This document shows positions 2,891 through 62,748 of a stretch of DNA of 64,000 nt, in pieces. The stretch is from positions 512,001 to 576,000 of the forward strand of contig CAVYXA010000001.1 in assembly GCA_963772365.1 (NCBI GenBank), written 5' to 3'. A model generated the notes under the pieces. That model was not told the origin of the DNA. It saw only the letters and a program-made list of their open reading frames with translations, and made no database searches. Positions within the stretch are counted from its first letter, which is position 1; each line of letters begins with the position of its first letter. This DNA is from an uncultured Verrucomicrobiae bacterium (GTDB lineage Bacteria; Verrucomicrobiota; Verrucomicrobiia; Chthoniobacterales; UBA10450). Made by a program: the position numbers and the translations under genes.

Positions 2891-3448
2891 TGTAGCGGCG
2901 GTCTATGACCGTCGCTCGAATTGCTAGAAGTTCGCTATTGTCTCGTGTGCCGGAACGTCTCCGCAGAGTCCATCGCCTCTTTTACCGAGTTCCAATCTAT
3001 TATGTGACTGCGTGCACCTTCATACGCCGATCGAATCTGAACAATGGTGCGGTTCACGCCCGCCTGTTTGAATTCAGTAACGCGGGTCCCCATCGTGGAG
3101 CATGGTTGGGTGCGTACGTGCTCATGCCGGATCACCTGCACGCATTTGTCGGAATGAATGACGAGCTATTGACGCTGTCCGAATGGATGAAGTCGCTGAA
3201 AAATGCTCTGTCGCAGACGCTGCGACTTCAAAAAATTCCATCACCGCACTGGCAGAAAGGGTTCTTCGATCACATCCTGCGTAGCGAAGAATCTTACGAC
3301 GAAAAGTGGAGTTACGTTCGCGAAAACCCCGTGCGTGCTGGATTAGTTGAGCAATGGGAGGAATGGCCATTCTTGGGTGAAGTATTCGATCTGGAGTTCC
3401 TGGATGATCTCAATTGATAAACTGCGACGGTCATAGACCGCCGCTACA
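2891..3448. mobile_element. REPtron: RAYT gene flanked by perfect 25-bp inverted GTAG-type REPs
   Basis: TGTAGCGGCGGTCTATGACCGTCGC at 2891-2915 and its exact reverse complement at 3424-3448. Confidence 0.9.
2947..3417 (+). CDS. REP-associated tyrosine transposase (RAYT, HUH/Y1 family)
   Basis: YYVTACT, AYVLMPDHLH (HUH), WQKGFFDHILR, YVRENPVRAGLV (catalytic Tyr); GTG start inferred. Confidence 0.9.
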   Translation: MPERLRRVHRLFYRVPIYYVTACTFIRRSNLNNGAVHARLFEFSNAGPHRGAWLGAYVLMPDHLHAFVGMNDELLTLSEWMKSLKNALSQTLRLQKIPSPHWQKGFFDHILRSEESYDEKWSYVRENPVRAGLVEQWEEWPFLGEVFDLEFLDDLN

Positions 3449-16373: not shown

Positions 16374-17891
16374 CTAGTGCGGTTTCAGAACAACGAACGA
16401 ACGGGTCCGATGTCGACAAAGGGAAAGTACTTGTGGCTGGGCCGGATCGACCGAGCCGGCAATCTGGTTGTAATCTGCAACCGATTGGATCGGCTGTTGA
16501 TTAACTTCCTCAATGACGTCGCCCTTTTGCAATTCCGCCGCGCCGCTGTCAGGATCGACATCGGTGATGACGACGCCGTGCGCGTTGCCGGGTAAATCCA
16601 GCCGGCTCCTCAATTCTGGCGTTAAGTTGTCCACATGAATCGCTGCCAGCGGTCCGCTCGTCTCCGCTGGCCCTTCCTCTTCTTCCTGGTCGTTAGGTTG
16701 TTGAGGCTGACCTTGCTGTGGCGAACGTACCGCAGCCCGGAAATCGACCGGCTGTTCCTTGATTTGTGTATCCACTTTCATCGTCTTGCCATTTCGAACG
16801 ATTTGCAGCTCGATCTTCCTGTTTAGCTCGGCCTGGGCAACCAAGGTTCGAAGCTCGGGAAAACTTTTCACGTCATGCCCATCGAACTTCTGGATGATGT
16901 CGCCCGGTTTCAGATTCGCTTCGGCTGCCGGTGATCCGGGCAATACAGCGTTCACAACCACACCCTCATTATCAGCAGCGCCTCGCCCTGGTTGAACCGT
17001 TTGAATCCCGAGGTAACCCCGAATGATTCGCCCTTTTTTCAGCAAACTCTCGAGGGCCATGCGCACGGTATTGGATGGAATCGCAAAACCAATCCCCTGC
17101 GAGCCGCCGCTGCGCGAGATGATCGCGGTATTGATTCCGACTACTTCGCCGCGAAGATTGATCAGCGGTCCGCCACTGTTCCCAGGATTGATCGCCGCAT
17201 CGGTTTGCAACAAATCGCTGAAAATATCGGTACGGTTCGGTCGGCCTCGAGAGCTGATGATACCGTTGGTAACGGTCTCCTCGAATCCGAATGGATTGCC
17301 GATTGCCAGGACAATGTCGCCGGCTTGCACATCATCCGAATCGGCCAGCTTGAGCGGTTTCACTTCGGGATTGTCGATCTTGAGCACGGCGAGATCGAGT
17401 TCCGCATCCGCCCCTATCAGGCGTGCCTTCTTGGTGCGGCCATCGCTCAATTGCACCTCGATTTCGTCCACCTGATCCACCACGTGATTATTCGTTATGA
17501 TATGACCTTCCTTGGTTACAATCACCCCTGAGCCAAGCGAATTTTGAATTAACGCCTGCTCGCGCGGAGTTCGAAACTGGCCGCGATTGCCAAAGAAAAA
17601 TTCAAACGGATCCATCCCGTATTGTCGCCGGATTGCAATCTTCTTTGACGTCTTCACGGCGACCACCGAGGGAATCACACTTTTTACCAGGGCGCGTCTT
17701 TCCTGGTTGAGCGCTTCCAGAGAGGCAACTTGTTTGGGACTCACGTTTGGCTCGGTCGCCAGCGTATATTTTTCAGGCGTTCGATGACCTATCGGTCCGA
17801 GCTTTCCATTGTGGAGACGGTAATCGTAAAGAAGCGAGACGCCCGCGCTCACCAGCAGCACGAACAGAAGAAATTTGGCAAAGTTTTTCAT
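16374..17891 (-). CDS. DegP/HtrA (Do family) serine protease with two PDZ domains
   Basis: GSGVIV, ITNNHVV, DLAVLK, QTDAAINPGNSGGPL. Confidence 0.93.
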   Translation of the reverse strand: MKNFAKFLLFVLLVSAGVSLLYDYRLHNGKLGPIGHRTPEKYTLATEPNVSPKQVASLEALNQERRALVKSVIPSVVAVKTSKKIAIRRQYGMDPFEFFFGNRGQFRTPREQALIQNSLGSGVIVTKEGHIITNNHVVDQVDEIEVQLSDGRTKKARLIGADAELDLAVLKIDNPEVKPLKLADSDDVQAGDIVLAIGNPFGFEETVTNGIISSRGRPNRTDIFSDLLQTDAAINPGNSGGPLINLRGEVVGINTAIISRSGGSQGIGFAIPSNTVRMALESLLKKGRIIRGYLGIQTVQPGRGAADNEGVVVNAVLPGSPAAEANLKPGDIIQKFDGHDVKSFPELRTLVAQAELNRKIELQIVRNGKTMKVDTQIKEQPVDFRAAVRSPQQGQPQQPNDQEEEEGPAETSGPLAAIHVDNLTPELRSRLDLPGNAHGVVITDVDPDSGAAELQKGDVIEEVNQQPIQSVADYNQIAGSVDPAQPQVLSLCRHRTRSFVVLKPH

Positions 17892-20581
17892 TAGCTAACC
17901 GTTGAGAAAGTTTTTCCCCCTCTTTCGACAATCAATTGGCGGAAACGTTGATTCTCTGGCAGTTCCAGATAAGGATCGATGGCGAAGATCGACATCGCTG
18001 CGCTCCGGGCTTTTCTCATGAGTTCCGCATCAGTTTTCAGGTTGCCGATCTTTAACGCCGGCAAACCGCTTTGGGCTGTGCCTAGCAAATCGCCCGGTCC
18101 GCGCAAGTCCCAGTCCGCTTCGGCCACTTCAAAACCGTTGCTGGTTTTTTCCAGCACGCCCAGCTTTTCCATTGTTTCCTCTGATTGATCCGAGGTTAAC
18201 AAAATGCAATACGATTTATGCTCGCCGCGGCCGATTCGACCCCGAAGTTGATGCAACTGGGCGAGCCCGAAACGCTCCGCGTTTTCCACAAGGATCACCG
18301 TAGCGTTTGGAACATCGACACCGACCTCGATTACGGTTGTGCTGATTAATGCGTGTGTTTCACCCCGGCGAAATCGCTCCATGATCTCCTGTTTCTCCGG
18401 GGCAACAATCCGGCCATGAAGCAATTCACAGCGAAACGGCTGCAATCGTTCCCGCCATGATTCATATTCCGCCGCGGCCGCTTTTGCGTCCAGCTTCTCG
18501 CTTTCTTCGATCAAAGGGTAAATCACGTAAAGTTGTCGCCCTGCTTCGAGCTGTTCTCGCAAAAAAGTCAAAATCTCAGGCAGTTTTAATCGGTCGCGAA
18601 TTGCCGTGACAATTTTTCCACGGTTCCGCGGCATTTCGTCGATCACCGAAACATCGAGATCGCCGTAAACCGTCATCGTTAATGTCCGCGGTATCGGCGT
18701 TGCCGTCATGACCAGGACATCCGGCGCCGGCTCCCGTTCCGTTAGTCGCGCCCGCTGCGCGACACCGAACTTGTGCTGTTCATCGATGACCACCAGCCCG
18801 AGATTCGAAAACACAACGCTTTCGTAAAGCAAAGCATGCGTGCCGACAATAATTTGCGGCTGGTCCACAGAAATCCGGGGAGCGCACGCTTGTAGCGTGC
18901 TGATCGCCGCATTCTGCGGCGACGAACTTTGATCCAGGCGCATCTCATCGTCAGGCGTCCAAACCCATGGATAATCTTCGCCTTGTCGAGCAACACCCGA
19001 ATCCCACGGATTCCGCAGGATGTACTGAAACTTCTCGACCAAATCACTGTCCGATCGAACGTAGCGATCGAACGTTTCTTTTTCCCAAACCGGACCCTGG
19101 TTTCCCTCCACTCGATTAATTTCGCGGGCGGAAAACGATTTTATTGACCTCATCAATTCGCTCAGCGACCAGAACGTCGTCTCGCCATCGATGGATTCGT
19201 CCTTCGGCCAGGGTTGAAATAGTGCGTGCACATGATCGGGCATGACACAGACGGCGAATAGTTCGTAACGCGAATTGTGAAAATGTCGCCACGCGTTCAG
19301 AACAAGCGTCCGCGCGTCCGCGTTCAATCTGCGTCGATGCCCAGTGGTGAAAGTAACTGCATAGATCGCCCACGGCTTTTCAAAATGTGGAAGACGCCTG
19401 CGCCCGTACCTCGCGCCGTCCGCTGATGGCCTCAAAGTTCGCGATGGCAGAATGCCATCACCAGCACGCTGCAAGCGTGCGCTCCCCGGCTCCCCGTGCG
19501 CAAACAACGGTAAGGGTCCGCTCTCCTCTTGGCGGGCAGCGGTCCGAAGCGCGATCCGGACGCCTAACGGTTCCAGCCAGCCCCGGAGCACGGAATAATG
19601 TTGCTCGGCCAGGATTTGTGTCGGCGCCATGAATGCGGCTTGATAGCCTGCTTCGATTGCAAGCAACATCGCTGCAATCGCGACTACGGTTTTGCCTGAA
19701 CCGACATCGCCCTGGAGCAGACGGTTCATGGGATGATTCGCAGCCAGATCATGCCGGATTTCCGCGATCACCTTTGATTGCGATCGCGTCAATTCGAATG
19801 GCAGCGCCCCAAGAAATTTCTCGAGAAGCACAGCGTTCCCACAATGCGCTTCGCCGGCTCGATTGGAAGATTCCGAGCGCCTTGCCGCGATCAGCATTTG
19901 CATGGCGAAGAATTCCGAGAGCACGAGATGCTCGCGCGCCTGGTCGCGCGCCTCCCAGGTTTGTGGAAAATGAATGGCTCGAAGCGAGGAAAGCCGGTCG
20001 CCCGTCGCGAGATTTTTCGGTAGTAACGTTTCCAGCGGCTGCTCGGAAAATTCGCTTAACAATTTGTAAATCATGCTGCGCAGGATTCGCTGCGAGAGAC
20101 CCTCCGTGGCGGGATAAATTGGAGTAATCCGTCGAAAATGGATCGACATCTCCGCGTCATCTTCGATTACCTCAAACTCCGGATGATCCATGCAAATCCG
20201 TTTCCCGCGCAGACGCGGCTTGCCGAAAACAACGAGCCGTTGCCCGGTCGCGATCATCTTCTGCACATAGTGGAGATTGAACCACCGGCAGACCAACGGT
20301 TCGCTTAGCACATGCGGATTCGATTCCTCAAGCGTGGCTTCGAAAATCTTTTTCCATCCGCCGAACCGGCGCAATGAAGTTTTGACGACCTCGCCGCAAA
20401 GACAAATGGGCCGGTCGCTTTCCTCACGCGGAAACTCATCGAACTGCTGTCGATCTTCCCAACGCCGCGGATAATGCGTGAGCAAATCTTCGACCGTCTC
20501 GATACCGAGCCGGCGAAGCGCCAGAAGCTTCGGACGCGCGATCCATTCGAGCGTTTCGAGTTTTTGTGAAATATCGATCAT
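17891..20581 (-). CDS. recG: ATP-dependent DNA helicase RecG with an in-frame RAYT insertion
   Basis: LLQGDVGSGKT, MAPTQILAEQH, IIVGTHAL, IDEQHKFG, MTATPIPRT, GLAQLHQLRGRIGRG, RGPGDLLG; extra 205 aa between motifs Ia and Ib. Confidence 0.95.
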   Translation of the reverse strand: MIDISQKLETLEWIARPKLLALRRLGIETVEDLLTHYPRRWEDRQQFDEFPREESDRPICLCGEVVKTSLRRFGGWKKIFEATLEESNPHVLSEPLVCRWFNLHYVQKMIATGQRLVVFGKPRLRGKRICMDHPEFEVIEDDAEMSIHFRRITPIYPATEGLSQRILRSMIYKLLSEFSEQPLETLLPKNLATGDRLSSLRAIHFPQTWEARDQAREHLVLSEFFAMQMLIAARRSESSNRAGEAHCGNAVLLEKFLGALPFELTRSQSKVIAEIRHDLAANHPMNRLLQGDVGSGKTVVAIAAMLLAIEAGYQAAFMAPTQILAEQHYSVLRGWLEPLGVRIALRTAARQEESGPLPLFAHGEPGSARLQRAGDGILPSRTLRPSADGARYGRRRLPHFEKPWAIYAVTFTTGHRRRLNADARTLVLNAWRHFHNSRYELFAVCVMPDHVHALFQPWPKDESIDGETTFWSLSELMRSIKSFSAREINRVEGNQGPVWEKETFDRYVRSDSDLVEKFQYILRNPWDSGVARQGEDYPWVWTPDDEMRLDQSSSPQNAAISTLQACAPRISVDQPQIIVGTHALLYESVVFSNLGLVVIDEQHKFGVAQRARLTEREPAPDVLVMTATPIPRTLTMTVYGDLDVSVIDEMPRNRGKIVTAIRDRLKLPEILTFLREQLEAGRQLYVIYPLIEESEKLDAKAAAAEYESWRERLQPFRCELLHGRIVAPEKQEIMERFRRGETHALISTTVIEVGVDVPNATVILVENAERFGLAQLHQLRGRIGRGEHKSYCILLTSDQSEETMEKLGVLEKTSNGFEVAEADWDLRGPGDLLGTAQSGLPALKIGNLKTDAELMRKARSAAMSIFAIDPYLELPENQRFRQLIVERGGKTFSTVS
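18875..19489 (-). mobile_element. REP-RAYT-REP element embedded in frame in recG
   Basis: 56-58 bp inverted repeats at 18875-18932 and 19432-19489 enclosing RRRLPHF...YAVTFTT...VMPDHVH...WEKETFDRYVR...YILRNP; 615 bp = 205 codons. Confidence 0.9.
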
Positions 20582-20672
20582 CGACCAGTAGAACCCAACG
20601 GGCACCTACTACGAGCGCCCACGTGCGCACAAATTTCAGATTCGAATATCGTTTTCATCACTCGCGGTTCCC

Positions 20673-20840: not shown

Positions 20841-22601
20841 TCATGGTCGCTCTGCCTCGCGAACGGCTTCAATCTGCATTCCGAGGAGCGTTTCACCTTC
20901 GTAATCATCAGCTCGAACTCGAAATGCGATGTCCCATGGCGCGCCAGGCAGTTCTTCGCTGCCCCCGTCAAAGAAAATTGCGCGCCGATGATAATTATTC
21001 TGACGCAGCCGCAAAATGAGATGCTTTTCGTTTACCACTCGCGGCGGCGCCACCGGTTCGACCTGTCGGGCAAGAAACAGGGGCGCGGGATTTCCATTGC
21101 CGAACGGTTGGAGCATCTCGTGCCACTTAAGGAATCCCAGATTGAGCTCGGAAAATGCGAGCTCGTGGTCGAGGCGCAAATCCGCCGCGGCGGACAACTG
21201 TTCGTCAGACAACAACTCGCGCGCGGCACTTCGGAAAGCCTTAGAGAAAGGATCGACATCTTCCTCTCGAATCACCAGCCCGGCCGCCATTTCGTGTCCG
21301 CCGAATTTTTGCAAACTACCGCGGCACCGATCCAACGCTTCCACCAGGTTCAATCCTTCAATGCTCCGACCGCTTCCTTTGCCAGTGCCATTCTCCTCGA
21401 ACCCGATCACAACCGTTGGCCGATGATACTTTCGTGAAATCCGCGACGCCACAATTCCGAGCACGCCCGGATGCCAGCCGCGTCCGCTCACAACAATGCC
21501 CGCATCGCGCAACGGATCGAAATCACGCGTAATCTGCTCGTCCGCGGCTGCAAAGATTTCCTTTTCTACCGTTTGTCGGTCGCGATTTTCTTTATCCAGA
21601 AATTCCGCCAGCGAAGCGGCCTCACTTTCGTCCGCGGTCAGCAAAAGCCGGAGCGATCGCTCCGCGTTGCTCAATCTACCAGATGCGTTCAAGCGCGGAC
21701 CGAGTCGAAAGCCAATGTGCTCGGTCAGGATTGGCGGACGGATACCGCTGACCTCGATTAATTTTCTCAAGCCCGGTCTTGTCGATCTTGTGATCTCAAT
21801 CGCTCCGCGTTGGCCGAAAATTCTGTTCTCAGCTTGGAGTGGGACGATATCGGCGACTGTGCCAAGCGCAACGAGATCAAGTTTCGATTTCAGATCGAAC
21901 TCGATCGGGCGGGTCTTCAGAAGAGCATGGCAAAGCTTAAAGACGATCCCGACGCTGCACAGATAATGAAACGGTGATTCCGGATCGATCTTCGGATTTA
22001 CGATCGCGACGCAACTTGGCAGGCCCGATTTCGGTTCATGATGATCGAGAACGATCACATCGACGCAGCGCGTGGTAAGATCGACAATCTCCGAGGCTGA
22101 TGAAGTCCCGCAATCGACCGCAATCAGAAGTTGCGGCTGATATTGCTCGAAGCAACGCTCGATGCTTTCCGGGCTTAGCCCATAGCCCTCTTCCATTCGC
22201 AGCGGCAGAAATAGTTCCGGCGACGCGCCGTACGCCCGCAGCATCTCTGCCAGCAACGCCACAGAAGTAACGCCATCAACATCGTAATCGCCGAAGAGAA
22301 CAATTGGTTCGCCTCGGTCGATCGCACCCAGAATTCGCACGACCGCTGCGTCCATATTGGGAAGCAGAAATGGATCACTGAGCGACTTCAATCGTGGCCG
22401 CAGAAATGTTTCGACTTCCTCGGTGGTGGCGAACCCTTTGCGCATCAATAACCGCGCGATACAATCCGACGGACAGATTTCGCTCCACGAAACCGCTCCG
22501 CTATTCAGCTCTTCGGGCGGCGCAATAATCCAACGGCTCTGCCGCGTAAAAGACCCACGCGGACTTTCGCCGATCGAATTCTCCTCTACGCGGCTTTGCA
22601 C
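20841..22601 (-). CDS. recJ: Single-stranded DNA exonuclease RecJ (start uncertain)
   Basis: GDYDVDG, EGYGL, VDCG, LDHH, LGTVADIVPL, GPRLNASGR, GSGRS, FGGHEMAAG. Confidence 0.95.
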   Translation of the reverse strand: MQSRVEENSIGESPRGSFTRQSRWIIAPPEELNSGAVSWSEICPSDCIARLLMRKGFATTEEVETFLRPRLKSLSDPFLLPNMDAAVVRILGAIDRGEPIVLFGDYDVDGVTSVALLAEMLRAYGASPELFLPLRMEEGYGLSPESIERCFEQYQPQLLIAVDCGTSSASEIVDLTTRCVDVIVLDHHEPKSGLPSCVAIVNPKIDPESPFHYLCSVGIVFKLCHALLKTRPIEFDLKSKLDLVALGTVADIVPLQAENRIFGQRGAIEITRSTRPGLRKLIEVSGIRPPILTEHIGFRLGPRLNASGRLSNAERSLRLLLTADESEAASLAEFLDKENRDRQTVEKEIFAAADEQITRDFDPLRDAGIVVSGRGWHPGVLGIVASRISRKYHRPTVVIGFEENGTGKGSGRSIEGLNLVEALDRCRGSLQKFGGHEMAAGLVIREEDVDPFSKAFRSAARELLSDEQLSAAADLRLDHELAFSELNLGFLKWHEMLQPFGNGNPAPLFLARQVEPVAPPRVVNEKHLILRLRQNNYHRRAIFFDGGSEELPGAPWDIAFRVRADDYEGETLLGMQIEAVREAERP

Positions 22602-62691: not shown

Positions 62692-62748
62692 AAAGTTCGC
62701 GATGGCGAGGGCGCCATCGCCAGCACGCGAGTCGCGTGCGCTCCCCGG
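62692..62748. repeat. Dispersed copy of the double-hairpin repeat that flanks the recG-embedded RAYT
   Basis: AAAGTTCGCGATGGCGAGGGCGCCATCGCCAGCACGCGAGTCGCGTGCGCTCCCCGG compared with 19434-19489. Confidence 0.85.

Follow-up and report, generated by a model that had tools for sequence, protein, structure and literature searches.

A REP-RAYT-REP cassette nested in frame within recG of an uncultured Verrucomicrobiae bacterium and its relatives in other housekeeping genes

REP-associated tyrosine transposases (RAYTs) are usually pictured as single-copy, stand-alone genes that are inherited largely vertically, and both their mobility and their benefit to the host are debated. We analyzed a 64,000-nucleotide stretch of contig CAVYXA010000001.1 (positions 512,001 to 576,000; assembly GCA_963772365.1) from an uncultured Verrucomicrobiae bacterium of the order Chthoniobacterales, whose genome is referred to as G000. 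This stretch is called the window, and its positions are used below unless a genome or locus code is prefixed (other G numbers denote relatives, L numbers fetched loci and P numbers metagenome proteins). Its recG gene contains a RAYT between two repetitive extragenic palindromes (REPs), all read in the frame of the helicase. With a probability of about 0.72, we interpret this insert as a mobile REP-RAYT-REP cassette, start-less and stop-less, that occupies a variable loop on the RecG surface, keeps the frame and is translated through, in an intein-like niche without splicing. Compared with the REPtrons in the parts of two surveys that treat them (e.g., E. coli TnpA-REP, 4ER8; PMC6006769; PMC3733652), the locus is alike in its protein family, its inverted flanking REPs, its single-copy RAYT, its dispersed single REPs and inverted doublets (REPINs), and the GT[AG]G-type feet found in relatives. 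It is unlike them in that the classical RAYT is a stand-alone gene between REPs, whereas here the REPs are part of the coding sequence, start and stop are lacking, and the unit is nested in the frame of a host gene.

Palindromes within coding sequences have precedents, and Rickettsia palindromic elements are said to be inserted in frame and translated. Passages of Di Nocera et al. (2013; PMC3733652) describe short intragenic REPs, many of them in DNA replication and repair genes, tRNA synthetase genes and dnaE, including cases in the verrucomicrobium Opitutus terrae, and passages of Quentin et al. (2018; PMC6006769) report RAYT genes (subclass 2.4) that contain in-frame REPs, in peripheral loops. 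Like the intragenic REPs in those passages and the Rickettsia elements, both arms of the recG cassette, an insert in dnaE of G000 and an insert in recG of the relative G012 are translated in-frame palindromes with copies elsewhere; unlike those short, non-autonomous sequences, the recG insert of G000 is far larger and the whole unit, transposase included, lies in the translated frame. Subclass 2.4, as presented there, likewise illustrates that in-frame REPs are tolerated in coding sequence, but its nesting is the reverse: a REP inside a RAYT, instead of a RAYT with its REPs inside a host gene. According to the same passages of Quentin et al. (2018; PMC6006769), unexpectedly long proteins were discarded as fusions or annotation errors, and embedded RAYTs may therefore have been filtered from that survey. 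Our literature search found no description of host genes that contain a complete RAYT cassette in frame; the supplements of PMC6006769 and PMC3733652, which lay outside that search, might list "long" proteins.

The insert occupies positions 18875-19489 (615 nt) and corresponds, codon boundary to codon boundary, to residues 373-577 of a single 904-aa open reading frame (ORF; Table 1). Over these 615 nt the recG frame has no stop codon, while each of the other five frames has 5-9. The in-frame position of the insert, its bounding inverted repeats, its RAYT identity and the integrity of the surrounding helicase had all been proposed in the first-pass annotation of the window, and all four hold up. 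The 904-aa ORF passes the cut-offs of three RecG equivalog profiles (NF008168, 789.6 vs. 718; NF008165, 741.6 vs. 711; TIGR00643, 685.9 vs. 659.4), and Pfam finds RecG_wedge, a DEAD domain split in two, Helicase_C and RecG_dom3_C in it. The strings APTQILAEQH and IIVGTHAL, which we take to be helicase motifs Ia and Ib, are both present in the ORF, as are MPDHVH and YILRNP of the RAYT. The gene-caller version of the product is 896 aa long (P0003), and a search of the G000 genome for a second recG found none. The REPs that flank the RAYT are 56 nt each; the inverted arms of the cassette (18866-18932 and 19432-19498) measure 67 nt, are 78% complementary and fold, as single-stranded DNA, into two hairpins apiece (z -3.1 to -3.7), and both repeats are translated. 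As annotated at first, the stretch from the left repeat to the RAYT core lacks an in-frame ATG and the cassette has no stop codon; to this must be added, as a correction, that in-frame TTG codons occur at RecG residues 378 and 391.

The assignment to the RAYT family is supported by profiles and by predicted structure. The insert alone scores 88.4 bits with the "REP-associated tyrosine transposase" profile NF047646 (cut-off 80) and covers positions 4-145 of its 146; within the full-length protein the score is 84.1 bits. Pfam Y1_Tnp matches the insert with 29.6 bits (cut-off 23), and the IS200 profile NF033573 gives 23.4 bits, below its cut-off of 55, so that the insert does not belong to the IS200/IS605 TnpA group as defined by that profile. 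The arrangement is that of a REPtron insofar as inverted REPs flank the RAYT, REPs are also dispersed, and the RAYT body is single-copy (no second nucleotide copy of it was found in the G000 genome). A stand-alone gene with its own start and stop between the REPs is not what is seen, either in G000 or across this RAYT lineage as a whole. When the insert was modelled alone (predicted local distance difference test score, pLDDT, 83), its best match in the PDB was the REP-bound RAYT 4ER8_A (E = 1e-5; template-modelling score 0.65 on the target; 155 columns), followed by the IS200, ISDra2 and IS608 transposases. A sequence-profile search of the PDB with the insert also placed 4ER8 first (E = 7e-6); a single-sequence search of the insert against PDB sequences returned nothing relevant. 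The full-length fusion, modelled with AlphaFold2 on a 109-row alignment, has a mean pLDDT of 84.9 and a predicted template-modelling score of 0.72, and its best PDB match is T. maritima RecG (1GM5; E = 3.6e-42). The RecG body and the RAYT core are predicted confidently, and pLDDT falls below 50 at residues 367-411 and 560-576. The model thus predicts an independent RAYT domain that hangs on two disordered tethers from a normal RecG.

The cassette is not confined to G000. When the 205-residue insert was first searched for in 41 related genomes, its close homologues (44-67% identity) turned up in very long open frames. An order-wide census, based on an even sample of 301 genomes and matches at E ≤ 1e-25, then identified 86 homologues in 65 genomes; the frames around 81 of the 86 are open over 646-1522 aa without an internal stop, and those around the other five measure 219-274 aa (one of the 81 comes from genome G008, which supplied no locus and on which no claim rests). 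A single in-frame case would be expected by chance about once in 20-30 by a rough estimate, which is not very improbable, but a chance in-frame location is excluded because 81 of 86 homologues are in long frames. The hosts were classified at 100 loci with 101 ORFs, 41 by Pfam and 60 by BLASTP of insert-masked ORFs against the Pfam-annotated ones. They comprise alanyl-tRNA synthetase (AlaRS; 35), RecG (32, in addition to that of G000), ThrRS (12), CarB (6), MetH (5), ValRS (2), LeuRS (1) and eight short ORFs, so that the same lineage is found in frame in at least seven housekeeping genes. A phylum-wide search, in which at most seven candidates per genome were scored, gave matches (E ≤ 1e-30) in six of 401 evenly sampled genomes; four of the six lie outside the order, and all frames are 730-1164 aa long.

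At E ≤ 1e-20 the insert matches 1178 proteins of at least 360 aa in a 5.8-billion-protein collection. Among the 120 matches listed, the strings GTHAL and DHVH together picked out at least 93 distinct RecG-RAYT fusions besides that of G000 (~900 aa; core 71-79% identical), and several metagenome fusions are named at source "RecG-like helicase/REP element-mobilizing transposase RayT" or RecG of Candidatus Udaeobacter sp., which hints at the identity of the G000 bacterium. The number and distinctness of the fusions rule out an assembly artefact as the source of the fusion. In these metagenome fusions the right linker is more conserved (median identity 89%) than RecG (79-83%). A search of clustered representatives yielded 80 proteins at E ≤ 1e-30, 26 of which have at least 400 aa, and was less informative since many are fragments. 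We also noticed that two MetH proteins (P0004 and P0012; 1648/1654 aa) and six AlaRS proteins (P0005-P0009 and P0042; 1299-1408 aa) are ~200-250 aa longer than the single-cassette forms and score far above the level expected of one copy at 50% identity, which hints at two cassettes per host gene.

The lack of translation signals is likewise a feature of the lineage. Of 91 cassettes, 42 have some possible start codon (in-frame ATG, GTG or TTG) in the left linker, from the left end of the cassette to the first conserved RAYT motif, and in 10 of these it is preceded by a Shine-Dalgarno-like motif; the other 49 have none, and an in-frame ATG before the RAYT core is lacking in 83 of the 91. Neither among the homologues of the order census nor among the short ORFs does any cassette end with a stop codon. 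Even the seven short "stand-alone" ORFs of the lineage have their ATG upstream of the left REP and their stop downstream of the right REP, so that both REPs are read through; the eighth short ORF, a distant RAYT, does have a start of its own.

The recG site itself was examined in an alignment of 51 RecGs, of which 32 have an insert, 18 are empty and one, that of G012, has only REPs. All 32 inserts (189-253 residues) fall within one alignment window, between ...PLPLF... and ...IIVGTHAL, and the cassette starts a variable number of codons after PLPLF. The empty alleles that the first-pass annotation had proposed to look for among orthologues do exist: 18 of the 51 have 4-19 residues at the same loop and no cassette. 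No target motif or target-site duplication was apparent by eye at the recG junctions of 17 alleles. On a FastTree phylogeny of the RecG host parts, G000, whose cassette belongs to lineage A, is sister to G001, a member of the same genus without a cassette (support 99). G217 (lineage A) is sister to the cassette-less G010, G017 (lineage A) to G053 (lineage D), with the REP-only G012 adjoining both, and G087 (lineage A) to G004 (lineage D). Host-tree branches with support of at least 95 force at least 10 changes of the empty state. G028 and G043, whose RecG hosts are only 0.047 and 0.049 apart, have different cassette lineages, and between these two genomes dN, the nonsynonymous divergence, is 0.047 in RecG and 0.436 in the cassette core. 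A quick IQ-TREE phylogeny of 102 cassettes clusters by host gene, yet it needs 22 host changes where the minimum is seven, and it gives the RecG cassettes at least two origins. Cassettes have thus been gained, lost and replaced at the recG site. In one family (L107, L109, L120 and L121), four RecG hosts are about equally distant from each other (synonymous divergence, dS, 0.35-0.49) and carry two cassette sub-lineages; core dS is 0.16 and 0.07 within the two cassette pairs and dN is 0.38-0.43 between them, which suggests recent cassette exchange between recG alleles.

Vacated sites can keep traces of the cassette. The "empty" recG loop of G001 (L029:2586-2651) retains GGACGCGTGTGTTACCCA, identical at 17 of 18 nt to the right terminus of lineage-A cassettes; in the comparison with G019 the match extends into the host flank (21 of 25 nt), and none of 100 shuffles reached its score. 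The stretch is translated DACVTQ, and filled alleles have DACATQ. By these matches the G001 allele is a deletion scar and not a never-occupied site. The recG of G012 (L035:1479-3719) has a 68-residue loop with a REP-only in-frame insert, composed of 23 nt identical to the second hairpin of the downstream REP of G000 plus a REP doublet of lineage D, which suggests that two lineages occupied this site successively. In the G010 loop, too, no shuffle out of 100 reached the observed score, but the matched left-end stretch includes host codons and is therefore unsafe. Among the cassette-less RecG alleles searched for footprints, only G001, G010 (with that reservation) and the REP-only G012 stand out, and the 8-residue loops look clean. 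Taken together, the scars and the interleaved states imply that the recG site has been occupied, vacated and re-occupied, and that the surviving deletions keep the frame.

Selection was analyzed with the Nei-Gojobori method in 14 RecG pairs. The dN/dS of the RAYT core, which the first-pass annotation had asked for, ranges from 0.033 to 0.433 in the six pairs with measurable dS; in the other eight dS is saturated and dN is ≤ 0.27. The histidines of the HUH motif and the catalytic tyrosine are jointly intact in 97 of 102 cassettes and in 92 of the 93 metagenome RecG fusions found among the matches listed. The RAYT core is under purifying selection. The flanking RecG parts have dN/dS of 0.05-0.10 where both alleles are filled (L049/L050, L009/L049, L091/L103 and L016/L084), and the RecG dN/dS between G000 and the cassette-less G001 is 0.070. 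The REP-coded linkers behave differently: their dS is lower than that of the host in 12 of 14 pairs (e.g., 0.20 vs. 0.69; 0.34 vs. 1.86), host dS being saturated in the other two, and their dN/dS is 0.26-1.16. This is the signature of linkers that are constrained as nucleotide sequence and not as peptide.

The REPs of the cassette have kin elsewhere in the genome. Iterative nhmmer searches of G000 found 38 double-hairpin REP copies, including 13 inverted doublets. One doublet of the GGAG-type family lies in frame in dnaE (DNA polymerase III alpha; 1097-aa frame) at L129:3640-3753, i.e., G000:C3:270639-270752, where it adds 38 translated residues (LGSARFQRAGECILHSRTF...STPEARAPQ) to the stretch that separates the HhH domain from the OB domain; it is a counterpart of the recG insert that lacks the transposase. 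The termini of lineage A in relatives read GGGTAGCGC...GCGCTACCC, and both termini in G000 read GGGGAGCGC...GCGCTCCCC. We counted exact 13-mers of the two end types in five related genomes, with reversed-pattern controls of 0-1. G000, whose resident recG cassette has GGAG ends, contains 8 GGAG-type and 14 GTAG-type copies, and G001, which has lost its cassette, contains 7 and 11. The genomes G019 and G217, whose resident ends are GTAG, have 3 and 2 GGAG-type but 33 and 32 GTAG-type copies, respectively. G017 carries two cassettes with different end types, GGAG in metH and GTAG in recG (G017:C2:395012-395588 and G017:C2:833105-833718), and has 25 GGAG-type and 24 GTAG-type copies. These counts fit the possibility that embedded RAYTs drive REPs with matching feet.

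From these results a mechanism can be proposed. The cassette would be transcribed and translated within recG, with ribosomes passing straight through, and the product would be a RecG of roughly 100 kDa that bears an extra RAYT domain on two disordered, REP-encoded tethers and still functions. RecG would tolerate the domain because the loop is variable, as seen from its 4-19 residues in cassette-less alleles, and because the linkers are disordered. The low dN/dS of the RecG flanks, together with the single recG of the genome, lends indirect support to the view that RecG function is retained with the insert. The tethered RAYT would nick and join REP hairpins exposed on single-stranded DNA, copying or mobilizing REPINs and, rarely, moving or replacing cassettes. 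An indispensable host gene would supply the cassette with expression and would also protect it, as deletions that break the frame would be lethal or costly. This would be the logic of inteins minus protein splicing, as the first-pass annotation had put forward as one of its two options, and the recurrence in housekeeping genes, the interleaving of states and lineages on the RecG tree, the scars and REP-only remnants and the junction residues discussed below all support it.

Several points weigh against this interpretation. The existence of the fusion protein, its RecG activity with the insert and its RAYT activity are all read from sequence, and we know of no RAYT for which mobility of a whole cassette has been demonstrated experimentally. 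The TTG codons at residues 378 and 391 would allow an internally started product from the G000 copy. The cassette habit is rare across the phylum, the cassette and host phylogenies are quick or FastTree reconstructions without bootstrap, and the dS estimates of the linkers rest on just 46-53 codons per pair. Finally, the link between end types and REP populations comes from five related genomes, and G000 itself has more REPs of the GTAG type than of the GGAG type carried by its cassette.

Among the rival explanations, it is improbable that the cassette is removed before the mature protein is formed, leaving a functional RecG without RAYT. Removal could take place in the RNA, where the arms, complementary as they are over 67 nt, could pair; in the protein, by some unknown kind of splicing or by proteolysis of the linkers, which are predicted to be disordered and thus possibly protease-accessible; or in the DNA, by seamless excision in part of the population. 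Seamless excision is a property of the related IS200/IS605 transposases, and cassette-less alleles do occur among close relatives. RNA splicing would need no open frame, yet 81 of 86 homologues are in long stop-free frames and in G000 only the host frame is open throughout. An Rfam scan of positions 18400-20000 (E ≤ 1) gave two hits far below their gathering scores (26.7 vs. 196 and 20.5 vs. 55 bits), and a known intron or ribozyme was rejected on this ground. Protein splicing by an intein was also rejected: the junctions (...GE/PGS... and ...APR/ISV... in G000) vary among the nine RecG inserts compared and have neither a conserved Cys, Ser or Thr at the start nor a terminal Asn, Pfam finds no intein or Hint family, and the insert is predicted to fold as a RAYT. 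The losses in relatives, which leave scars, were not all seamless. Another rival is a passive relic or an artefact: a dead transposase remnant that drifts in the loop, or an assembly that is chimeric. An H or the Y has indeed been lost in five of 102 cassettes, but the HUH motif and the Tyr are intact in the G000 copy, dN/dS of the core lies far under 1, the REP ends have kept their hairpin folds, and the same fusion occurs in at least 93 distinct protein clusters from metagenomes and in 31 further reference genomes. We regard this last explanation as extremely improbable.

The other option of the first-pass annotation, that the HUH domain was recruited as a RecG-specific nuclease that nicks at forks, R-loops and D-loops and is kept for the benefit of the host, did not survive the comparison well and is quite unlikely. 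RecG acts on branched DNA with single-stranded regions, which is the type of substrate used by HUH enzymes; RecG is one of the two commonest hosts; the core is under purifying selection with its catalytic residues kept; and the host tree suggests largely vertical inheritance of the insert in one family (f16). The same lineage is, however, found in AlaRS (35), ThrRS (12), CarB, MetH, ValRS and LeuRS, and the cassette tree shows 22 host switches against a minimum of seven; outside RecG, the hosts are mostly tRNA synthetases and enzymes of biosynthesis, which have nothing to do with forks. The 18 cassette-less RecGs include the same-genus sister that lost its cassette, with one more reduced to REPs, nearly identical RecG hosts (0.047-0.049 apart) carry different cassette lineages, and the REP ends are constrained as DNA, as expected for a mobile element rather than for a linker. 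A further possibility is that recG is in effect broken, with a RAYT product that starts internally (e.g., at the TTG of codon 391) and runs into the C-terminal half of RecG, or with the halves made separately. The two in-frame TTG codons of G000 and the possible left-linker starts of 42 of the 91 cassettes, 10 with a Shine-Dalgarno-like motif, would permit this, but 49 of 91 have no possible start at all, 83 of 91 have no ATG, and none has a terminal stop. Given in addition that both RecG halves are strongly purified by selection, that there is no second recG, and that the two halves form a single, normal RecG fold in the model, split expression is very unlikely.

A mobile cassette translated through in frame is therefore the reading with which we compare other nested elements. 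Like inteins, the cassettes are selfish, sit in frame in conserved housekeeping genes and are distributed sporadically, close relatives having empty alleles and sites being re-occupied by other lineages, and the REP-only inserts in recG of G012 and dnaE of G000 are reminiscent of mini-inteins as enzyme-less derivatives. Unlike inteins, they have no Hint fold or splicing residues, so that the insert most likely stays in the mature protein, and their enzyme is an HUH transposase for single-stranded DNA, in contrast to the double-strand homing endonuclease of inteins. IStrons consist of an IS605-type element fused to a group I intron that is removed by RNA self-splicing. They are relatives in the same transposase superfamily, and their insertion into genes is likewise made harmless; for the recG cassette the Rfam scan found no ribozyme, and what is maintained is an open frame. 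Helitron Rep/Hel, relaxases such as TraI and viral Rep proteins combine an HUH nuclease and a helicase in one polypeptide as tandem, co-evolved fusions. The RecG fusion shares with them the domains of both activities on one chain, but its HUH domain sits as an insertion in a loop and is found in non-helicase hosts as well.

By its family and arrangement, the cassette would be a known kind of element with a new way of life. We consider it slightly better than an even chance that it represents a distinct kind of mobile element: HUH transposase units without translation signals of their own that live only as translated loop inserts of essential proteins, have REP-only "mini" derivatives, recur at fixed sites (at least two lineages in the recG loop), have an enzyme that is active while tethered and are a non-splicing functional counterpart of inteins. 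The RAYT borne by RecG would then be the working transposase behind the REPINs of G000.

What distinguishes this RAYT lineage is that it is found almost only within the frames of other genes, its ends kept as DNA hairpins and its catalytic residues as protein. If the fusions are made and active, they would be a second, mechanistically different answer to the problem solved by inteins, namely how a selfish element can reside in an essential gene without killing it. A foreign domain of 200 residues appears to be tolerated in particular loops of large enzymes (RecG, AlaRS, ThrRS, MetH and CarB), which would offer natural insertion-tolerant sites for protein engineering. Annotators should be aware that such proteins may be named as odd "RecG/RayT" hybrids or dropped as fusion errors. 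The bacteria concerned are Candidatus Udaeobacter-like and are among the most abundant in soil.

Table 1. Features of the recG locus and a dispersed REP in the window (pLDDT, predicted local distance difference test).
Feature	Position	Strand	Evidence
recG ORF, 904 codons, GTG start as listed	17891-20605	-	open through the cassette
recG residues 1-372, before the cassette: wedge domain, helicase motifs I and Ia; ends ...PLPLFAHGE	19490-20605	-	Pfam; AlphaFold pLDDT ~85-97 to residue 360
Upstream REP of the cassette, double hairpin, terminus CCGGGGAGCGCACGC..., translated PGSARLQRAGDGILPSRT	19434-19489	-	nhmmer C1:531489-531434; two hairpins, z -3.3
RAYT catalytic core, RecG residues 412-559	18929-19372	-	NF047646 over residues 407-547; pLDDT 84-97; 4ER8 match
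HUH motif, H458-V459-H460 in MPDHVH	19226-19234	-	string and aligned columns
Catalytic Tyr codon, Y528 in YILRNP	19022-19024	-	string and aligned columns
Downstream REP of the cassette, double hairpin, terminus ...GCGTGCGCTCCCCGG, translated SSSPQNAAISTLQACAPR	18875-18930	-	nhmmer C1:530875-530930; z -3.6
recG part downstream of the cassette, residues 578-904: ISVDQPQIIVGTHAL, DEQH, Helicase_C, dom3_C	17891-18874	-	Pfam; equivalogs; AlphaFold
Dispersed single REP of the same family, GGAG-type end, far from recG	62692-62747	-	nhmmer C1:574747-574692

The window holds another RAYT-like gene. The first-pass annotation had cited a stand-alone RAYT near position 2947 as an ordinary counterpart of the insert, and the ORF at 2905-3417 (+; 170 aa) does have its own ATG and stop, but it is only a distant relative, 35% identical. 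It is of the conventional RAYT-like kind, with MPDHLH and YVRENP, and its Y1_Tnp match is weak (23.4 bits, with nothing at 1e-5). The neighbors of recG on the same strand are a gene for an HtrA-like protease (Trypsin_2 and PDZ; 16374-17891, -) and recJ (DHH, DHHA1 and RecJ_OB; 20841-22601, -), so that two recombination genes, recG and recJ, adjoin each other.

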